Source: Escherichia coli
GTDB lineage: Bacteria; Pseudomonadota; Gammaproteobacteria; Enterobacterales; Enterobacteriaceae
Assembly (NCBI RefSeq): GCF_001677475.2
Contig: NZ_CP015229.1
Strand: one strand, 5' to 3'
Length of the DNA: 64,000 nucleotides
Shown here one piece after another: positions 1,970-12,502 of the stretch; the stretch's first letter is position 1, and every line of letters begins with the position of its first letter. The notes below the pieces were generated by a model, which searched no databases, was not told where the DNA came from, and saw nothing but the letters and a program-made list of their open reading frames with translations. The translations under genes were made by a program, and so were the position numbers.

Positions 1970-3217
1970 CTATATTGCTGAAGGAACAGGCGTTTCCATA
2001 ACTATTTGCTCGCGTTTTTTACTCAGGAAGAAAATGCCAAATAGCAACATCAGGCAGACAATACCCGAAATTGCGAAGAAAACTGTCTGGTAGCCTGCGT
2101 GGTCAAAGAGTATCCCAGTCGGCGTTGAAAGCAGCACAATCCCAAGCGAACTGGCAATTTGAAAACCAATCAGAAAGATCGTCGACGACAGGCGCCTATC
2201 AAAGTTTGCCACGCTGTATTTGAAGACGGATATGACACAAAGTGGAACCTCAATGGCATGTAACAGCTTCACTAATGAAATAATCCAGGGGTTAACGAAC
2301 AGCGCGCAGGAAAGGATACGCAACGCCATAATCACAACACCGATAAGTAATGCATTTTTTGGCCCTACCCGATTCACAAAGAAAGGAATAATCGCCATGC
2401 ACAGCGCTTCGAGTACCACCTGGAATGAGTTGAGATAACCATACAGGCGCGTTCCTACATCGTGTGATTCGAATAAACCTGCATAAAAGACAGGAAAAAG
2501 TTGTTGATCAAAAATGTTATAGAAAGACCACGTCCCCACAATAAATATGACGAAAACCCAGAAGTTTCGATCCTTGAAAACTGCGATAAAATCCTCTTTT
2601 TTTACCCCTCCCGCATCCGCCGCTACGCACTGGTGATCCTTATCTTTAAAACACATGTTGATCATCATAAATACAGCGCCAAATAGCGAGACCAACCAGA
2701 AGTTGATATGGGGACTGATACTAAAAAATATGCCGGCAAAGAACGCGCCAATAGCATAGCCAAAAGATCCCCAGGCGCGCGCTGTTCCATATTCGAAATG
2801 AAAATTTCGCGCCATTTTTTCGGTGAAGCTGTCAAGCAAACCGCATCCCGCCAGATACCCCAGGCCAAAAAAGAGCGCCCCCAGAATTAGACCTACAGAA
2901 AAATTGCTTTGCAGTAACGGTTCATAAACGTAAATCATAAACGGTCCGGTCAAGACCAGGATGAAACTCATACACCAGATGAGCGGTTTCTTCAGACCGA
3001 GTTTATCCTGAACGATGCCGTAGAACATCATAAATAGAATGCTGGTAAACTGGTTGACCGAATAAAGTGTACCTAATTCCGTCCCTGTCAACCCTAGATG
3101 TCCTTTCAGCCAAATAGCGTATAACGACCACCACAGCGACCAGGAAATAAAAAAGAGAAATGAGTAACTGGATGCAAAACGATAGTACGCATTTCTGAAT
3201 GGAATATTCAGTGCCAT
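1970..3217 (-). CDS. cscB: Sucrose:H+ symporter (MFS, LacY-like oligosaccharide:H+ symporter family)
   Basis: 415-aa 12-TM-type ORF recognised as CscB; adjacent to cscK/cscA/cscR. Confidence 0.9.
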   Translation of the reverse strand: MALNIPFRNAYYRFASSYSFLFFISWSLWWSLYAIWLKGHLGLTGTELGTLYSVNQFTSILFMMFYGIVQDKLGLKKPLIWCMSFILVLTGPFMIYVYEPLLQSNFSVGLILGALFFGLGYLAGCGLLDSFTEKMARNFHFEYGTARAWGSFGYAIGAFFAGIFFSISPHINFWLVSLFGAVFMMINMCFKDKDHQCVAADAGGVKKEDFIAVFKDRNFWVFVIFIVGTWSFYNIFDQQLFPVFYAGLFESHDVGTRLYGYLNSFQVVLEALCMAIIPFFVNRVGPKNALLIGVVIMALRILSCALFVNPWIISLVKLLHAIEVPLCVISVFKYSVANFDRRLSSTIFLIGFQIASSLGIVLLSTPTGILFDHAGYQTVFFAISGIVCLMLLFGIFFLSKKREQIVMETPVPSAI

Positions 3218-3288: not shown

Positions 3289-4203
3289 CTATTCCAGTTC
3301 TTGTCGACATGGCAGCGCTGTCATTGCCCCTTTCGCCGTTACTGCAAGCGCTCCGCAACGTTGAGCGAGATCGATAATTCGTCGCATTTCTCTCTCATCT
3401 GTAGATAATCCCGTAGAGGACAGACCTGTGAGTAACCCGGCAACGAACGCATCTCCCGCCCCCGTGCTATCGACACAATTCACAGACATTCCAGCAAAAT
3501 GGTGAACTTGTCCTCGATAACAGACCACCACCCCTTCTGCACCTTTAGTCACCAACAGCATGGCGATCTCATACTCTTTTGCCAGGGCGCATATATCCCG
3601 ATCGTTCTGTGTTTTTCCACTGATAAGTCGCCATTCTTCTTCCGAGAGCTTGACGACATCCGCCAGTTGCAGCGCCTGCCGCAAACACAAGCGGAGCAAA
3701 TGCTCGTCTTGCCATAGATCTTCACGAATATTGGGATCGAAGCTGACAAAACCTCCGGCATGCCGGATCGCCGTCATCGCTGTAAATGCGCTGGTACGCG
3801 AAGGCTCAGCAGACAACGCAATTGAACAGAGATGTAACCATTCGCCATGTCGCCAGCAGGGCAAGTCTGTCGTCTCTAAAAAAAGATCGGCACTGGGGCG
3901 GACCATAAACGTAAATGAACGTTCCCCTTGATCGTTCAGATCGACAAGCACCGTGGATGTCCGGTGCCATTCATCTTGCTTCAGATACGTGATATCGACT
4001 CCCTCAGTTAGCAGCGTTCTTTGCATTAACGCACCAAAAGGATCATCCCCCACCCGACCTATAAACCCACTTATTCCGCCTAATCTGGCGATTCCCACCG
4101 CAACGTTAGCTGGCGCACCGCCAGGACAAGGCAGTAGCCGCCCGTCTGATTCTGGCAAGAGATCTACGACCGCGTCCCCTAAAACCCACACTTTGGCTGA
4201 CAT
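3289..4203 (-). CDS. cscK: Fructokinase (PfkB/ribokinase family)
   Basis: 304-aa ORF with PfkB-type N-terminal GDAVVD and C-terminal GAGDAF motifs; in csc cluster. Confidence 0.85.
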   Translation of the reverse strand: MSAKVWVLGDAVVDLLPESDGRLLPCPGGAPANVAVGIARLGGISGFIGRVGDDPFGALMQRTLLTEGVDITYLKQDEWHRTSTVLVDLNDQGERSFTFMVRPSADLFLETTDLPCWRHGEWLHLCSIALSAEPSRTSAFTAMTAIRHAGGFVSFDPNIREDLWQDEHLLRLCLRQALQLADVVKLSEEEWRLISGKTQNDRDICALAKEYEIAMLLVTKGAEGVVVCYRGQVHHFAGMSVNCVDSTGAGDAFVAGLLTGLSSTGLSTDEREMRRIIDLAQRCGALAVTAKGAMTALPCRQELE

Positions 4204-4308
4204 TTTTTTCCCTTAGATTCATCTGACTTACGCATAGTGATAAACCTCTTTTTCGCAAAATCGTCATGGATTTACTAAAACATGCATATTCGATCACAAA
4301 ACATCATA

Positions 4309-4320
4309 GTTAACGTTAAC
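4309..4320. promoter_or_regulatory. Perfect 12-bp palindrome GTTAACGTTAAC in cscK-cscA divergent promoter region; candidate CscR operator (copy 1)
   Basis: Read directly in sequence; self-complementary; second identical copy 64 bp downstream. Confidence 0.5.
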
Positions 4321-4372
4321 ATTTGTGATATTCATCGCATTTATGAAAGTAAGGGACTTTATTTTTATAAAA

Positions 4373-4384
4373 GTTAACGTTAAC
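4373..4384. promoter_or_regulatory. Perfect 12-bp palindrome GTTAACGTTAAC; candidate CscR operator (copy 2)
   Basis: Identical to 4309-4320; lies about 25 bp upstream of cscA start codon. Confidence 0.5.
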
Positions 4385-4409
4385 AATTCACCAAATTTGC
4401 TTAACCAGG

Positions 4410-5852
4410 ATGATAAAAATGACGCAATCTCGATTACATGCGGCGCAAAACGCACTAGCAAAACTTCACGAGCGCCGAGGTAACACTTTCTATCCCCATT
4501 TTCACCTCGCGCCTCCTGCCGGGTGGATGAACGATCCAAACGGCCTGATCTGGTTTAACGATCGTTATCACGCGTTTTATCAACATCACCCGATGAGCGA
4601 ACACTGGGGGCCAATGCACTGGGGACATGCCACCAGCGACGATATGATCCACTGGCAGCATGAGCCTATTGCGCTAGCGCCAGGAGACGAGAATGACAAA
4701 GACGGGTGTTTTTCAGGTAGTGCTGTCGATGACAATGGTGTCCTCTCACTTATCTACACCGGACACGTCTGGCTCGATGGTGCAGGTAATGACGATGCAA
4801 TTCGCGAAGTACAATGTCTGGCTACCAGTCGGGATGGTATTCATTTCGAGAAACAGGGTGTGATCCTCACTCCACCAGAAGGAATCATGCACTTCCGCGA
4901 TCCTAAAGTGTGGCGTGAAGCCGACACATGGTGGATGGTAGTCGGGGCGAAAGACCCAGGCAACACGGGGCAGATCCTCCTTTATCGCGGCAGTTCATTA
5001 CGTGAATGGACTTTCGATCGCGTACTGGCCCACGCTGATGCGGGTGAAAGCTATATGTGGGAATGTCCGGACTTTTTCAGCCTTGGCGATCAGCATTATC
5101 TGATGTTTTCCCCGCAGGGAATGAATGCCGAGGGATACAGTTATCGAAATCGCTTTCAAAGTGGCGTAATACCCGGAATCTGGTCGCCAGGACGACTTTT
5201 TGCACAATCCGGGCATTTTACTGAACTTGATAACGGGCATGACTTTTATGCACCACAAAGCTTTTTAGCGAAGGATGGTCGGCGTATTGTTATCGGCTGG
5301 ATGGATATGTGGGAATCGCCAATGCCCTCAAAACGTGAAGGCTGGGCAGGCTGCATGACGCTGGCGCGCGAGCTATCAGAGAGCAATGGCAAACTCCTAC
5401 AACGCCCGGTACACGAAGCTGAGTCGTTACGCCAGCAGCATCAATCTATCTCTCCCCGCACAATCAGCAATAAATATGTTTTGCAGGAAAACGCGCAAGC
5501 AGTTGAGATTCAGTTGCAGTGGGCGCTGAAGAACAGTGATGCCGAACATTACGGCTTACAGCTCGGTACTGGAATGCGGCTGTATATTGATAACCAATCT
5601 GAGCGACTTGTTTTGTGGCGGTATTACCCACACGAGAATTTAGACGGCTACCGTAGTATTCCCCTCCCGCAGCGTGACACACTCGCCCTAAGGATATTTA
5701 TCGATACATCATCCGTGGAAGTATTTATTAACGACGGGGAAGCGGTGATGAGTAGTCGAATCTATCCGCAGCCAGAAGAACGGGAACTGTCGCTTTATGC
5801 CTCCCACGGAGTGGCTGTGGTGCAACATGGAGCACTCTGGCTACTGGGTTAA
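4410..5852 (+). CDS. cscA: Sucrose-6-phosphate hydrolase / invertase (glycoside hydrolase family 32)
   Basis: 480-aa ORF with GH32 N-terminal WMNDPNG catalytic motif and RDP motif (FRDPKV). Confidence 0.9.
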   Translation: MIKMTQSRLHAAQNALAKLHERRGNTFYPHFHLAPPAGWMNDPNGLIWFNDRYHAFYQHHPMSEHWGPMHWGHATSDDMIHWQHEPIALAPGDENDKDGCFSGSAVDDNGVLSLIYTGHVWLDGAGNDDAIREVQCLATSRDGIHFEKQGVILTPPEGIMHFRDPKVWREADTWWMVVGAKDPGNTGQILLYRGSSLREWTFDRVLAHADAGESYMWECPDFFSLGDQHYLMFSPQGMNAEGYSYRNRFQSGVIPGIWSPGRLFAQSGHFTELDNGHDFYAPQSFLAKDGRRIVIGWMDMWESPMPSKREGWAGCMTLARELSESNGKLLQRPVHEAESLRQQHQSISPRTISNKYVLQENAQAVEIQLQWALKNSDAEHYGLQLGTGMRLYIDNQSERLVLWRYYPHENLDGYRSIPLPQRDTLALRIFIDTSSVEVFINDGEAVMSSRIYPQPEERELSLYASHGVAVVQHGALWLLG

Positions 5853-5859
5853 CATAATA

Positions 5860-6861
5860 TCAGGTGGAACAACGGATCAACAGCGGGCAAGGGATCCGCG
5901 TCACTCTTCCCCCTTCACGACCTTCAATAATATGCAATGCAGCTTCCCGCCCGATAATGTCATGTGGAAGCTGAATTGTGGTCAGCGGCGGTAAAAACAG
6001 ATGCCCGACGCCAACCAGATTATCAAAGCCCATTACGGCGACATCCTGCGGGATACGTACCCCCTTCGCCAGGAGAACCTGATAAGCGACAAAGGCTGCG
6101 CGATCGTTACCACATATCAGAACATCAAAATCTGGTTTGCCAGATTGGAAGTGGGCATTGAGTAAACTTGCGAGATCGGTGTAGTGATCATCACCTGTTG
6201 CCATGTGAAATTGTTTCACCTCAGCCAGATCTCGTCCAGCATCACGCCAGGCCTGCTCAAATCCCTGCCGACGATACCCTGTTGCCAACGCACTTTCCGG
6301 TAGCCAGAAGCATAACGGTTGACGATAGCCCGCCGCGAGCAAATGCTGTGTTGATTCATATTGTGCAGTGTAATCATCAGGGATATAACTGGGTAACACT
6401 GGGTCATCCGCCACACAGTTCGCCAATACAATATTTTCACCATACAGAGACTCAGGCAGCGTGATATGTCGCAGCCCCATTGTAGTATAGATAATGCCAT
6501 CCGGACGGTGGGCAAGCAGCTGACGTGCCGCGCGGGCAGCGTCATCTTCAGAAAAAATATTGATTAAAAAACTATTCCAGCCGAACTCGCTGGCGGTTTG
6601 CTCAATGGCAAGCAGAATATCAACAGAGAAAGGAGTGGTAGCAGTGTCCTGCGCCAGCACGGCGAGAGTCGACGGCTTACGTCCTTGAGCGCGCATCTTA
6701 CGGGCGGAAAGATCAGGAACATAATTCAGGGTCTGGATTGCCTGCAATACGCGGTCACGCGTTGCAGGACGCACAGATTCTGCATTATGCATCACCCGGG
6801 AGACTGTCATCATCGACACTCCCGCCAGGCGTGCGACATCCTTTAATGAAGCCATACCCAT
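5860..6861 (-). CDS. cscR: LacI-family transcriptional repressor of csc genes
   Basis: HTH (MASLKDVARLAGVSMMTVSRVMHN) then periplasmic-binding-protein-like sugar domain; 397-aa ORF in track is probably 5'-extended, start placed at internal Met (6861 or 6855). Confidence 0.85.
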   Translation of the reverse strand: MGMASLKDVARLAGVSMMTVSRVMHNAESVRPATRDRVLQAIQTLNYVPDLSARKMRAQGRKPSTLAVLAQDTATTPFSVDILLAIEQTASEFGWNSFLINIFSEDDAARAARQLLAHRPDGIIYTTMGLRHITLPESLYGENIVLANCVADDPVLPSYIPDDYTAQYESTQHLLAAGYRQPLCFWLPESALATGYRRQGFEQAWRDAGRDLAEVKQFHMATGDDHYTDLASLLNAHFQSGKPDFDVLICGNDRAAFVAYQVLLAKGVRIPQDVAVMGFDNLVGVGHLFLPPLTTIQLPHDIIGREAALHIIEGREGGRVTRIPCPLLIRCST

Positions 6862-7097: not shown

Positions 7098-7316
7098 GTG
7101 CTGCCGCTGTATCCCGACATCAGCCCGGAAATTATTGCGATTGCTATCGGTTCAGGTGCGATTGGCTGCACGATCGTTACGGACTCGCTTTTCTGGCTGG
7201 TGAAGCAATATTGCGGCGCTACGCTTAATGAAACATTTAAACACTATACGACAGCGACATTTATCGCTTCAGTCGTCGCTCTGGCGGGCACATTCCTGCT
7301 GTCATTTATCATCTAA
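7098..7316 (+). pseudogene. dsdX: 3' remnant of D-serine permease gene dsdX (GntP family); 5' portion and dsdC absent
   Basis: 72-aa ORF ...[42 protein letters not shown] resembles a GntP-family C-terminus; sits directly upstream of dsdA where dsdX is expected. Confidence 0.65.
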
Positions 7317-8770: not shown

Positions 8771-10309
8771 TCACCCAACACCTTTCGCTGTAAACGGCGG
8801 TTTCGCAAACCAAACCAATACCGTAAGTAAGATAAAAGCAATAGCCGCCATACGGAAAATCTCATTTGCAGAAATTGAAAGTGACTGCTGAGTTATTTCA
8901 TTATTAATTTCATTAAGAACCCCTGAAAGCGAACCATAGTATTTATCCATAATTTGTGACGATGAATTAAACACGGGGTTAAATTGATCGATTGTTGCTG
9001 TCAACTGACTATGGTGTAATGATTCTCGGCGTCCCCACAGCGTCATTGTCAACGACGTACCAACGGATCCTGACAAGGTACGAAAAAAATTACTCATACT
9101 CGAGGCATTGGCAAATTTATTATCTGGCAAACCTGAAAACGAAATCGTTGTTAAGGGTAAAAAGAAACAGGCGACGGCGAATCCCTGAAAAAACTGTGGC
9201 AAAATGATGCCTGTAAAATCAATCGTTGGCATAAATGTCACAGAACGCCAGTAATAGCAAACCGCATACATTAAAAAACTAAATGTCACCAACAACCGCA
9301 TATCAATTTTGTTGCCATAACGTCCTATCAAAGGTGATATTAATAGCGGCATGATGCCGATGGGCGCATAGGCAAGTCCGGCCCATATCGCATTATACCC
9401 CATCGTTTCCTGGAGTAACTGCGGCATAAGGACTATCGCCCCAGAGTAAAATAAATACGCGCATGTGATACTCACAATACCAATGGTGAAATTACGGGAC
9501 TTAAACAAACTGAGATCAAGAATCGGATTCTCTGAGGTCGACTCCCAAATGACTAAAGAAATCAGAGAAATAACTGACACTACTGTTAGTATTATTATTG
9601 TACTCGAGTTGAACCAATCCAGATCGCGCCCTTTATCAAGCATTATCTGCAAGCCACCAACACCGAGCACTAACAGGGTCAGTCCTGGTAGATTCATTTT
9701 GACCGGTGAAGTCTCAGTTTCTCTTCCTTTAAGTAAGGTTAAGCATAATGTCAGAACGATAATCCCCATAGGGACATTGATTAAAAATATCCAACCCCAG
9801 CTAAAGTTGTCACAAATATAGCCGCCCAATATCGGCCCACATATCGGAGCGATAATTACGGTCATTGACCATAATGCCAAAGCAAATGTTCTTTTTTCTG
9901 GCGGATAATTCCTTAATAATAAACTCTGTGACAGTGGAATTAACGGCCCCGCCATTAACCCCTGAACGACTCTAAAAAATATCAACACATCAAGATTGGT
10001 CGATAGGCTACACATTAATGAAGACAGCGAAAAAAAGGTTACTGAAAGTAAAAATAATCTTAATTCGCCTATTCTTTGTGCCAGCCTGCCGGTAACAGGG
10101 ATCGCAATGGCATTTGCTACGCCAAACGAGGTGATAACCCAGGTGCCTTCGTCTGTTGATGCTCCCAGAAAGCCAGATATTGTCGGTATTGCGACGTTAG
10201 AAATAGTGGAATCCAACATTTGCATAAACGTCGCTAATGACAATGCAATAGTGACGCACCATAACGTCCCACCGGTTAATGGTGCCGGAGTTGATTTAGT
10301 GATTGCCAT
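8771..10309 (-). CDS. emrY: MFS multidrug efflux pump (EmrB paralog)
   Basis: 512-aa 14-TM-type MFS ORF; 1-bp overlap with upstream emrK suggests translational coupling. Confidence 0.9.
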   Translation of the reverse strand: MAITKSTPAPLTGGTLWCVTIALSLATFMQMLDSTISNVAIPTISGFLGASTDEGTWVITSFGVANAIAIPVTGRLAQRIGELRLFLLSVTFFSLSSLMCSLSTNLDVLIFFRVVQGLMAGPLIPLSQSLLLRNYPPEKRTFALALWSMTVIIAPICGPILGGYICDNFSWGWIFLINVPMGIIVLTLCLTLLKGRETETSPVKMNLPGLTLLVLGVGGLQIMLDKGRDLDWFNSSTIIILTVVSVISLISLVIWESTSENPILDLSLFKSRNFTIGIVSITCAYLFYSGAIVLMPQLLQETMGYNAIWAGLAYAPIGIMPLLISPLIGRYGNKIDMRLLVTFSFLMYAVCYYWRSVTFMPTIDFTGIILPQFFQGFAVACFFLPLTTISFSGLPDNKFANASSMSNFFRTLSGSVGTSLTMTLWGRRESLHHSQLTATIDQFNPVFNSSSQIMDKYYGSLSGVLNEINNEITQQSLSISANEIFRMAAIAFILLTVLVWFAKPPFTAKGVG

Positions 10310-11887: not shown

Positions 11888-12502
11888 ATGAACGCAATAA
11901 TTATTGATGACCATCCTCTTGCTATCGCAGCAATTCGTAATTTATTGATCAAAAACGATATTGAAATCTTAGCAGAGTTGACTGAAGGCGGAAGTGCCGT
12001 TCAGCGGGTGGAAACACTTAAGCCTGATATCGTCATCATTGATGTCGATATCCCCGGAGTTAACGGTATCCAGGTGTTAGAAACGCTGAGGAAGCGCCAA
12101 TATAGCGGAATTATTATTATCGTCTCCGCTAAAAATGACCATTTTTACGGGAAACATTGTGCTGATGCTGGCGCTAATGGATTCGTGAGTAAAAAAGAAG
12201 GCATGAACAATATCATTGCGGCTATTGAAGCTGCAAAAAATGGCTACTGCTATTTCCCCTTCTCTCTCAACCGGTTTGTTGGAAGTTTAACGTCCGACCA
12301 GCAAAAACTCGACTCCTTATCGAAACAAGAAATTAGTGTCATGCGGTATATTCTTGATGGCAAGGATAATAATGACATTGCTGAAAAAATGTTCATCAGC
12401 AACAAAACTGTCAGCACGTATAAAAGTCGCCTGATGGAAAAATTAGAATGTAAATCACTGATGGATCTTTACACATTCGCGCAACGTAACAAAATCGGCT
12501 AA
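11888..12502 (+). CDS. evgA: Response regulator EvgA (NarL/FixJ family)
   Basis: 204-aa ORF with receiver domain and C-terminal LuxR-type HTH. Confidence 0.9.
   Translation: MNAIIIDDHPLAIAAIRNLLIKNDIEILAELTEGGSAVQRVETLKPDIVIIDVDIPGVNGIQVLETLRKRQYSGIIIIVSAKNDHFYGKHCADAGANGFVSKKEGMNNIIAAIEAAKNGYCYFPFSLNRFVGSLTSDQQKLDSLSKQEISVMRYILDGKDNNDIAEKMFISNKTVSTYKSRLMEKLECKSLMDLYTFAQRNKIG

Follow-up and report, generated by a model that had tools for sequence, protein, structure and literature searches.

The closest described system is the csc regulon of E. coli itself. According to the account of Jahreis et al. 2002 (J Bacteriol 184:5307) relayed in PMC11251922 and also cited in PMC3938415, the region between cscA and cscK contains a 12-bp inverted repeat in two copies, proposed as putative CscR operators, and one of the two is the site of a derepressing up-mutation. 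The operator mutation takes its name from the cscK or cscKB side (PMC11251922; PMC3938415), and this cscK-side mutation reportedly increases cscA expression too (PMC11251922). The cscKB operator mutation was re-isolated in E. coli W by Steen et al. 2014 (PMC3938415). The repeats flank the -35 and -10 elements of cscA, the downstream repeat overlapping the transcription start, and a Crp-cAMP site adjoins the -35 (PMC11251922). Repeats, promoter and Crp site are all conserved in five species, Citrobacter and Kluyvera included (PMC11251922; Front Microbiol 2024). The bidirectional csc promoter is described as having two cAMP-CrpA sites (PMC3938415), and dependence of the csc genes on cAMP-CrpA is reported (PMC3938415; PMC11251922). 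In an EHEC deletion variant without cscR, transcripts of cscA, cscK and cscB are up 58, 156 and 28 fold respectively, and a cscA-promoter reporter is derepressed in an EHEC cscR deletion mutant (PMC7486766). Of 1303 LacI-family motifs, 1251 are palindromes of even length and 1173 carry CG at the centre; the usual motif length is 16-22 nt (PMC4052901). No EMSA, footprint or ChIP for CscR and no mapped csc transcription start were found in the accessible literature; a literature search for CscR binding assays or biosensors gave nothing relevant, and a full-text search for the 12-mer matched unrelated primer sequences only.

The pair analysed here lies in a 64-kb stretch of E. coli DNA, the whole of which is called the window. 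It is the same element as the operators of the csc regulon, as these are relayed from Jahreis et al. 2002 in PMC11251922. The palindrome pair was already described in 2002, and the earlier note on this DNA, made from the letters alone, is a correct rediscovery of it. Coordinates are collected in Table 1. Family matches confirm the gene context that had been proposed, namely divergent cscK(B) and cscA with a LacI-family gene, cscR, nearby. The length of 206 bp given for the intergenic region holds if the ATG at 4410 is used; the equivalent of the RefSeq start of cscA is the ATG at 4419, so that the gap is 215 bp.

Table 1. Coordinates in the window of the csc genes and of the regulatory elements between cscK and cscA.
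Feature	Position	Strand	Basis
cscB, sucrose:H+ symporter (oligosaccharide MFS transporter)	1970..3217	-	TIGR00882, E 2.8e-178
cscK, fructokinase	3289..4203	-	equivalog NF006957, E 4.7e-152, exceeds cut-off
CRP2 core, TGTGAtcgaatATGCA on the cscK strand	4283..4298		7/10 half-site bases; 10 nt from O1, facing cscKB
O1, distal (cscK-side) CscR operator core, GTTAACGTTAAC	4309..4320		exact palindrome, conservation
CRP1 core, TGTGAtattcaTCGCA	4324..4339		9/10 half-site bases; 22-mer 4321-4342 abuts O1
Candidate PcscA -10 hexamer, TATTTT	4360..4365	+	TATyTT kept in 7/7 loci of alignment A1; fits CRP1 at -40.5/-41.5
O2, proximal (cscA-side) CscR operator core, GTTAACGTTAAC	4373..4384		exact palindrome; on predicted cscA start
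cscA, sucrose hydrolase (GH32)	4419..5852	+	TIGR01322, E 7.8e-144; RefSeq start
cscR, LacI-family repressor, 331 aa	5860..6855	-	Pfam LacI HTH residues 3-48, Peripla_BP_1 residues 61-329

The first 12 kb of the window are up to 98.6% identical to complete E. coli genomes, and the cscK-cscA intergenic region is present in 2,660 of 5,426 complete genomes. Immediately upstream of an intact dsdA lies what remains of the 3′ end of dsdX (7100-7316), meaning that the csc genes take the place of dsdC and most of dsdX. The same replacement is described in EHEC and in E. coli W (PMC3032704; PMC7486766).

O1 and O2 are exact copies of GTTAACGTTAAC, a sequence that is its own reverse complement. The two identical perfect 12-bp palindromes reported in the earlier note are thus borne out: no other exact copy occurs in the window, and none (0.00) arose in 100 shuffles that preserve dinucleotides. 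Start to start they are 64 bp apart, as had been stated, with 52 bp between the copies. No further site with at most one mismatch was found in the window, and the matches with two mismatches, at 12059, 37947 and 46003, are within expectation (1.8 expected by chance). The operator core, GTTAAC followed directly by a second GTTAAC, is a perfect even palindrome with CG at its centre, and each 12-mer contains two HpaI sites (GTTAAC) and one AACGTT site. Perfect symmetry is confined to these 12 bp, the flanks in the window not being complementary; beyond the 12-mer, the likeness between O1 and O2 is limited to A/T-rich flanks (a direct repeat of 22 nt, 86%). O2 is centred 40 bp before the ATG of cscA, and O1 111 bp before that of cscK (4203). 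With up to two mismatches allowed, neither the region upstream of cscR nor that upstream of dsdA yielded a CscR-type site; for autoregulation of cscR in this gene arrangement there is thus no evidence.

Conservation of the pair was followed across CscR loci. A search for CscR in one genome per species yielded 74 gammaproteobacterial loci, with 48-96% protein identity; six unrelated LacI-family matches from the same search were left outside the 74. Allowing one mismatch at most, the 12-mer was present beside sucrose genes at least once in 73 of the 74 loci, and the operator pair in about 60. Over the 1.05 Mb of locus sequence, 132 sites with at most one mismatch were paired within 80 nt, and only 22 were solitary. 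The start-to-start spacing was 64 bp in 37 loci, 63 bp in 6 and 62 bp in 2. Other spacings were 57 bp (6 loci, in Gilliamella and other Orbaceae) and 68-69 bp (9 loci, in Proteus). The 64-bp spacing was independent of the divergent partner, which may be cscK, cscB or cscR: cscA faces cscK in Escherichia, Citrobacter and Pluralibacter and faces cscB in Rosenbergiella, while in Enterobacter, Klebsiella, Raoultella, Serratia, Yersinia and Aeromonas a permease-GH32 operon faces cscR.

Information content was computed on 23 modules, dereplicated at 85% identity. The two 12-mers were the most conserved positions of the region, with 1.98 bits per position for O1 and 1.85 for O2; CRP1 and CRP2 reached 1.47 and 1.15 bits, and spacers and flanks 0.26-0.62. 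Outside the operator core, these modules showed no more than A/T-rich flanks and a weak extension, T(-1)/A(+12). At 12 bp, the perfect core falls short of the 16-22 nt usual for LacI-family motifs (PMC4052901). Two alignments were also made, one of 7 loci from E. coli, Citrobacter and Pluralibacter (A1) and one of 7 E. coli strains (A2). Both 12-mers are invariant in A1, where the mean column identity is 77%, and also in A2.

Several lineages depart from the common layout. Providencia alcalifaciens DSM 30120 (L063 6780-6855) has a distant CscR-like regulator (48% identity) and a pair, GTTAATGTTAAC and GTTAACATTAAC, with TG or CA instead of the central CG; the 64-bp spacing is retained, and 10 nt further out there is a perfect CRP site, TGTGAggggtgTCACA. 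Five Gilliamella loci (L036 at 6820-6845, L043, L044, L065 and L072) carry, in addition to the cscA/cscK pair at 57 bp, an extra CscR-type pair 14 nt apart start to start, placed upstream of cscB and divergent from cscR. In Orbaceae bacterium ESL0721 (L037 6707-6732), the 14-nt pair is present and the cscA/cscK pair absent. In Proteus (L019-L027 and L070, at about 9585-9666), the operators GTTAACGATAAC and GTTAACGTTATC are 68-69 bp apart, with no CRP site between them, and a good promoter (TTGACT-17-TATGTT) runs into the operator on the cscK side. This means that the sandwiched promoter is oriented opposite to that of E. coli. Tatumella, like Proteus, keeps the operator pair without recognisable CRP sites.

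Where CRP sites are present, they form with the operators a module of fixed geometry. Toward the catabolic gene, it consists of the distal operator, 3 nt, a CRP-like core (TGTGA-N6-TCACA), 33 nt, the proximal operator, and about 25-35 nt before the start codon. The exact 33 and 3 nt around CRP1 were found in 38 loci and near variants in 10 more. Of the 59 loci with a pair, 48 have a CRP-like core with a score of 7/10 or better at 3-4 nt from the distal operator. A second CRP-like core, facing the divergent gene, is found exactly 10 nt past the distal operator in 41 loci. O1 is bracketed by two CRP-like sites, with gaps of 3 nt and 10 nt conserved in 38-41 loci. The order in the window is CRP2, 10 nt, O1, 3 nt, CRP1, 33 nt, O2, 34 nt and the cscA ATG, and GATCACAAAAC at CRP2 is invariant in the 7 loci of A1. 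The GTDB representative of E. coli, SCPM-O-B-8794 (L001), has a divergent csc allele, its CscA and CscK being 93% identical to those of the window, and in this allele CRP1 is perfect (TGTGAtgataaTCACA, L001 9517-9532); in the window and in common E. coli strains, one of its half-sites reads TCGCA. The possibility that CRP1 of the window is a weakened allele was rejected, TCGCA being the common E. coli allele in A2 and L001 the unusual one.

A consensus promoter and terminator scan of 4150-4470 found nothing, and in particular no sigma-70 match, so that promoter elements had to be derived from conservation. The candidate -10 hexamer of PcscA, TATTTT, is accompanied by TATAAA (4366-4371), which is not conserved in A1. 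A weak -35 also falls in the 33 nt that separate CRP1 from O2. CRP1 is centred at 4331.5, at a distance of 28.5 bp from the conserved TATTTT and of 41.5 bp from O2's first base. Given the latter distance, the most likely reading of PcscA is a promoter of class II, dependent on CRP, with transcription beginning at the edge of O2. Its start is predicted at about 4372-4373, which would place O2 at +1 to +12. The placement of O2 on the start agrees with the description in PMC11251922.

On the cscK side, two candidates were examined and discarded. GATTTT (4262-4257, minus strand), taken as the -10 of a class II cscKB promoter, is not conserved in Citrobacter and Pluralibacter, and a promoter running from the spacer into O1, as a mirror image of PcscA, would need a plausible -10/-35 on the minus strand between O2 and O1, where there is none. 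Some 35-40 nt before the start codon of cscK lies the hexamer TGATAA (4238-4243; on the cscK strand, TTATCA). All 7 loci of A1 share it, although its surroundings diverge. It may be the cscKB -10 (TATCAC/TATCAA) or, alternatively, the site of another protein. Used as a -10, it would put CRP2 near -60.5; an acceptable -35 and spacer fit was not found for it. The csc region of E. coli UTAK-5 (NZ_CP157152.1) contains an IS100 element of the IS21 family, with istA and istB (L082 613-2414). Its insertion point is equivalent to about 4268 in the window, between cscK and CRP2/O1, and cscKB is cut off in this strain from the upstream regulatory sites.

On the protein side, the N-terminus of CscR, which comprises the HTH and the hinge (MASLKDVA..VS.MTVSR...YVPDLSA.K), is nearly invariant over the 74 homologues, as expected if this domain reads an invariant operator. 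Residue 49, in the hinge helix (at about 6709-6711 of the window, on the minus strand), is a leucine in E. coli; Providencia and Proteus have Phe or Tyr at this position, Pectobacterium and Samsonia His. Its counterpart in LacI and PurR is the residue inserted into the central CpG. The operators are reported as still having a central CG in all four of these variant lineages (for P. alcalifaciens, see above). A close full-length homologue of CscR, annotated as 'Transcriptional regulator' (334 aa, E 2e-114), is found in PDB 6NDI chain A, so a structural template for CscR exists.

We conclude that the two dodecamers are almost certainly the sites bound by the sucrose repressor CscR, and we infer that this binding is direct. 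The proposal of a dimeric LacI-family operator pair for CscR is supported by published genetics, by the palindrome, its position and the features of the regulator, and by the phylogenetic footprint. More precisely, we give a probability of about 0.85 to the reading of the dodecamers as CscR operators within a compact, catabolite-controlled bidirectional control region.

Such a region would most likely work as follows. The sequences, their conservation and their geometry are observed; repression by CscR, cAMP-CRP dependence and the operator mutation are taken from the literature; the start sites, CscR occupancy and the mode of action of O1 are what we infer. When inducer is lacking, a CscR dimer at O2 would, judging from its position, block RNA polymerase at the cscA start. 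A second CscR dimer, at O1, would sit near -58 of PcscA, and 60 bp or more ahead of any plausible start of cscKB. On the most economical reading, it would interfere from there with CRP, or with contacts of the polymerase alpha subunit that usually fall immediately upstream of a class II CRP site and are needed by both divergent promoters; O1 would then be a shared operator that also governs cscKB. Interference at both promoters would explain why a mutation named for cscK raises the csc genes generally, why cscK responds to the loss of cscR as strongly as cscA does, and why no operator is found at the cscKB start. It had been suggested that each copy of the palindrome might overlap one of the divergent promoters: this applies to O2, which is on the predicted cscA start, but O1 is upstream of both promoters.

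The alternative that survives best is looping. CscR bound at O1 and at O2 would interact over about six helical turns, in the way of O1 and O3 of lac and with the CRP bend assisting, and this interaction would be the main basis of repression. The earlier note had pointed out that the spacing would allow it, and indeed the centre-to-centre distance is 62-64 bp, or 5.9-6.1 turns, in 45 loci, with CRP1 inside the would-be loop. The reported effect of the cscK-side operator mutation on cscA, as relayed in PMC11251922, would also fit cooperativity between O1 and O2. However, the core domain of CscR extends to residue 329 of 331, and the C-terminal extension that holds the tetramerisation helix in LacI is absent, which makes CscR probably a dimer, like PurR. 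Moreover, both sites are retained out of helical phase in Gilliamella (57 bp, 5.4 turns) and in Proteus (68-69 bp, 6.5 turns). Finally, the spacing is fully explained in another way, with CRP at -41.5: an operator of 12 nt, 3 nt, a CRP site of 16 nt and a promoter segment of 33 nt add up to 64 bp, so that looping is not needed to account for it. From the layout of the module, the 64-bp spacing appears to be set mainly by the geometry of CRP and promoter between the operators. Looping as the main basis of repression is therefore unlikely in our view, and we prefer occlusion at O2 combined with interference from O1.

Slightly more doubtful is anti-activation of the CytR type, in which CscR at O1 would stand between two CRP dimers, contact both, and silence both promoters without competing with CRP. 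The position of O1 between CRP-like sites speaks for it, the gaps of 3 and 10 nt being fixed in 38-41 loci while the sequence of the 10-nt gap drifts (0.62 bits per position). The CRP cores are 25 bp apart, inside the 10-40 bp range of CytR cassettes (PMC3454398). In addition, the best-scoring NCBIfam model for CscR is that of CytR; the score of 137 bits is far below the cut-off of 436, though, and such a match corresponds to ordinary LacI-family similarity. The quality of O1 also weighs against this explanation: a strong perfect palindrome argues against CscR binding that depends on CRP, and we know of no contact between CscR and CRP. The weak half-sites of CytR are different in this respect (PMC3454398). 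Lastly, the pairs of Tatumella and Proteus do without recognisable CRP sites.

A bolder form of the same idea would make O1 the hub of a stereospecific CRP-CscR-CRP assembly common to both promoters. That the gaps stay at 3 nt and 10 nt in about 40 species, despite drift of their sequence, would then be a sign of CscR acting on CRP or on the alpha subunit as CytR does, and not simply by occluding. We consider this assembly improbable. Should it prove true, csc would be a second, independently evolved case of anti-activation by a LacI-family protein, after CytR.

That the pair is no operator at all, but a chance duplication, a cluster of restriction sites or a DNA or RNA structural element, is excluded for practical purposes: the self-complementary 12-mers do make the pair an inverted repeat as well (I1, 19-nt arms, 89% complementary), but zero exact copies are expected by chance, the pair is kept where CscR is only 52-60% identical and the neighbouring sequence drifts, no Rfam match is found in 4100-4500, the predicted start sites put O1 outside both mRNAs, and the published operator mutation, in the accounts of PMC11251922 and PMC3938415, derepresses the csc genes.

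Biologically, the CscR operator reading adds little. The literature has covered the operators, their derepressing mutation and the control by CRP since 2002, and took them up again in 2024. What is new is the breadth of conservation, widened from 5 to about 60 species and to several gene orders, and an explicit fixed geometry of 3, 16 and 33 nt, plus 10 nt to the second CRP site. The csc cassette has been widely moved into industrial E. coli, and the layout should be useful for redesigning its bidirectional promoter. Motif and geometry together give a clean, testable basis for annotation of the CscR regulon in Enterobacterales, Orbaceae and Aeromonas.

Among the other known systems, the O3-CRP-O1 arrangement of lac bears a looser resemblance to csc: both place the main operator at the start and an auxiliary one further upstream, with a site for CRP in between. 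In lac, CRP is at -61.5 (class I), 92 bp separate the operators and tetrameric LacI forms loops, whereas csc has CRP at -41.5, a 64-bp spacing and a CscR without the tetramerisation tail. The O1/O2 operators of ScrR at scrY of pUR400 (Cowan 1991; Jahreis and Lengeler 1993, both as cited in PMC11251922) resemble csc in having the downstream operator on the start and CRP upstream. According to the same account, they differ from csc in being 14-bp repeats of another sequence at a unidirectional promoter. ScrR belongs to an orthologous group separate from CscR, at least 11 groups of LacI-family regulators of sucrose pathways being distinguished (PMC4052901). The CytR/CRP cassettes of deoP2, udp, nupG and tsx (PMC3454398), like csc, place a LacI-family site between two CRP sites at a conserved separation; the operators of CytR are weak, variably spaced half-sites that rely on CRP contacts, whereas O1 of csc is a perfect palindrome with a central CG.
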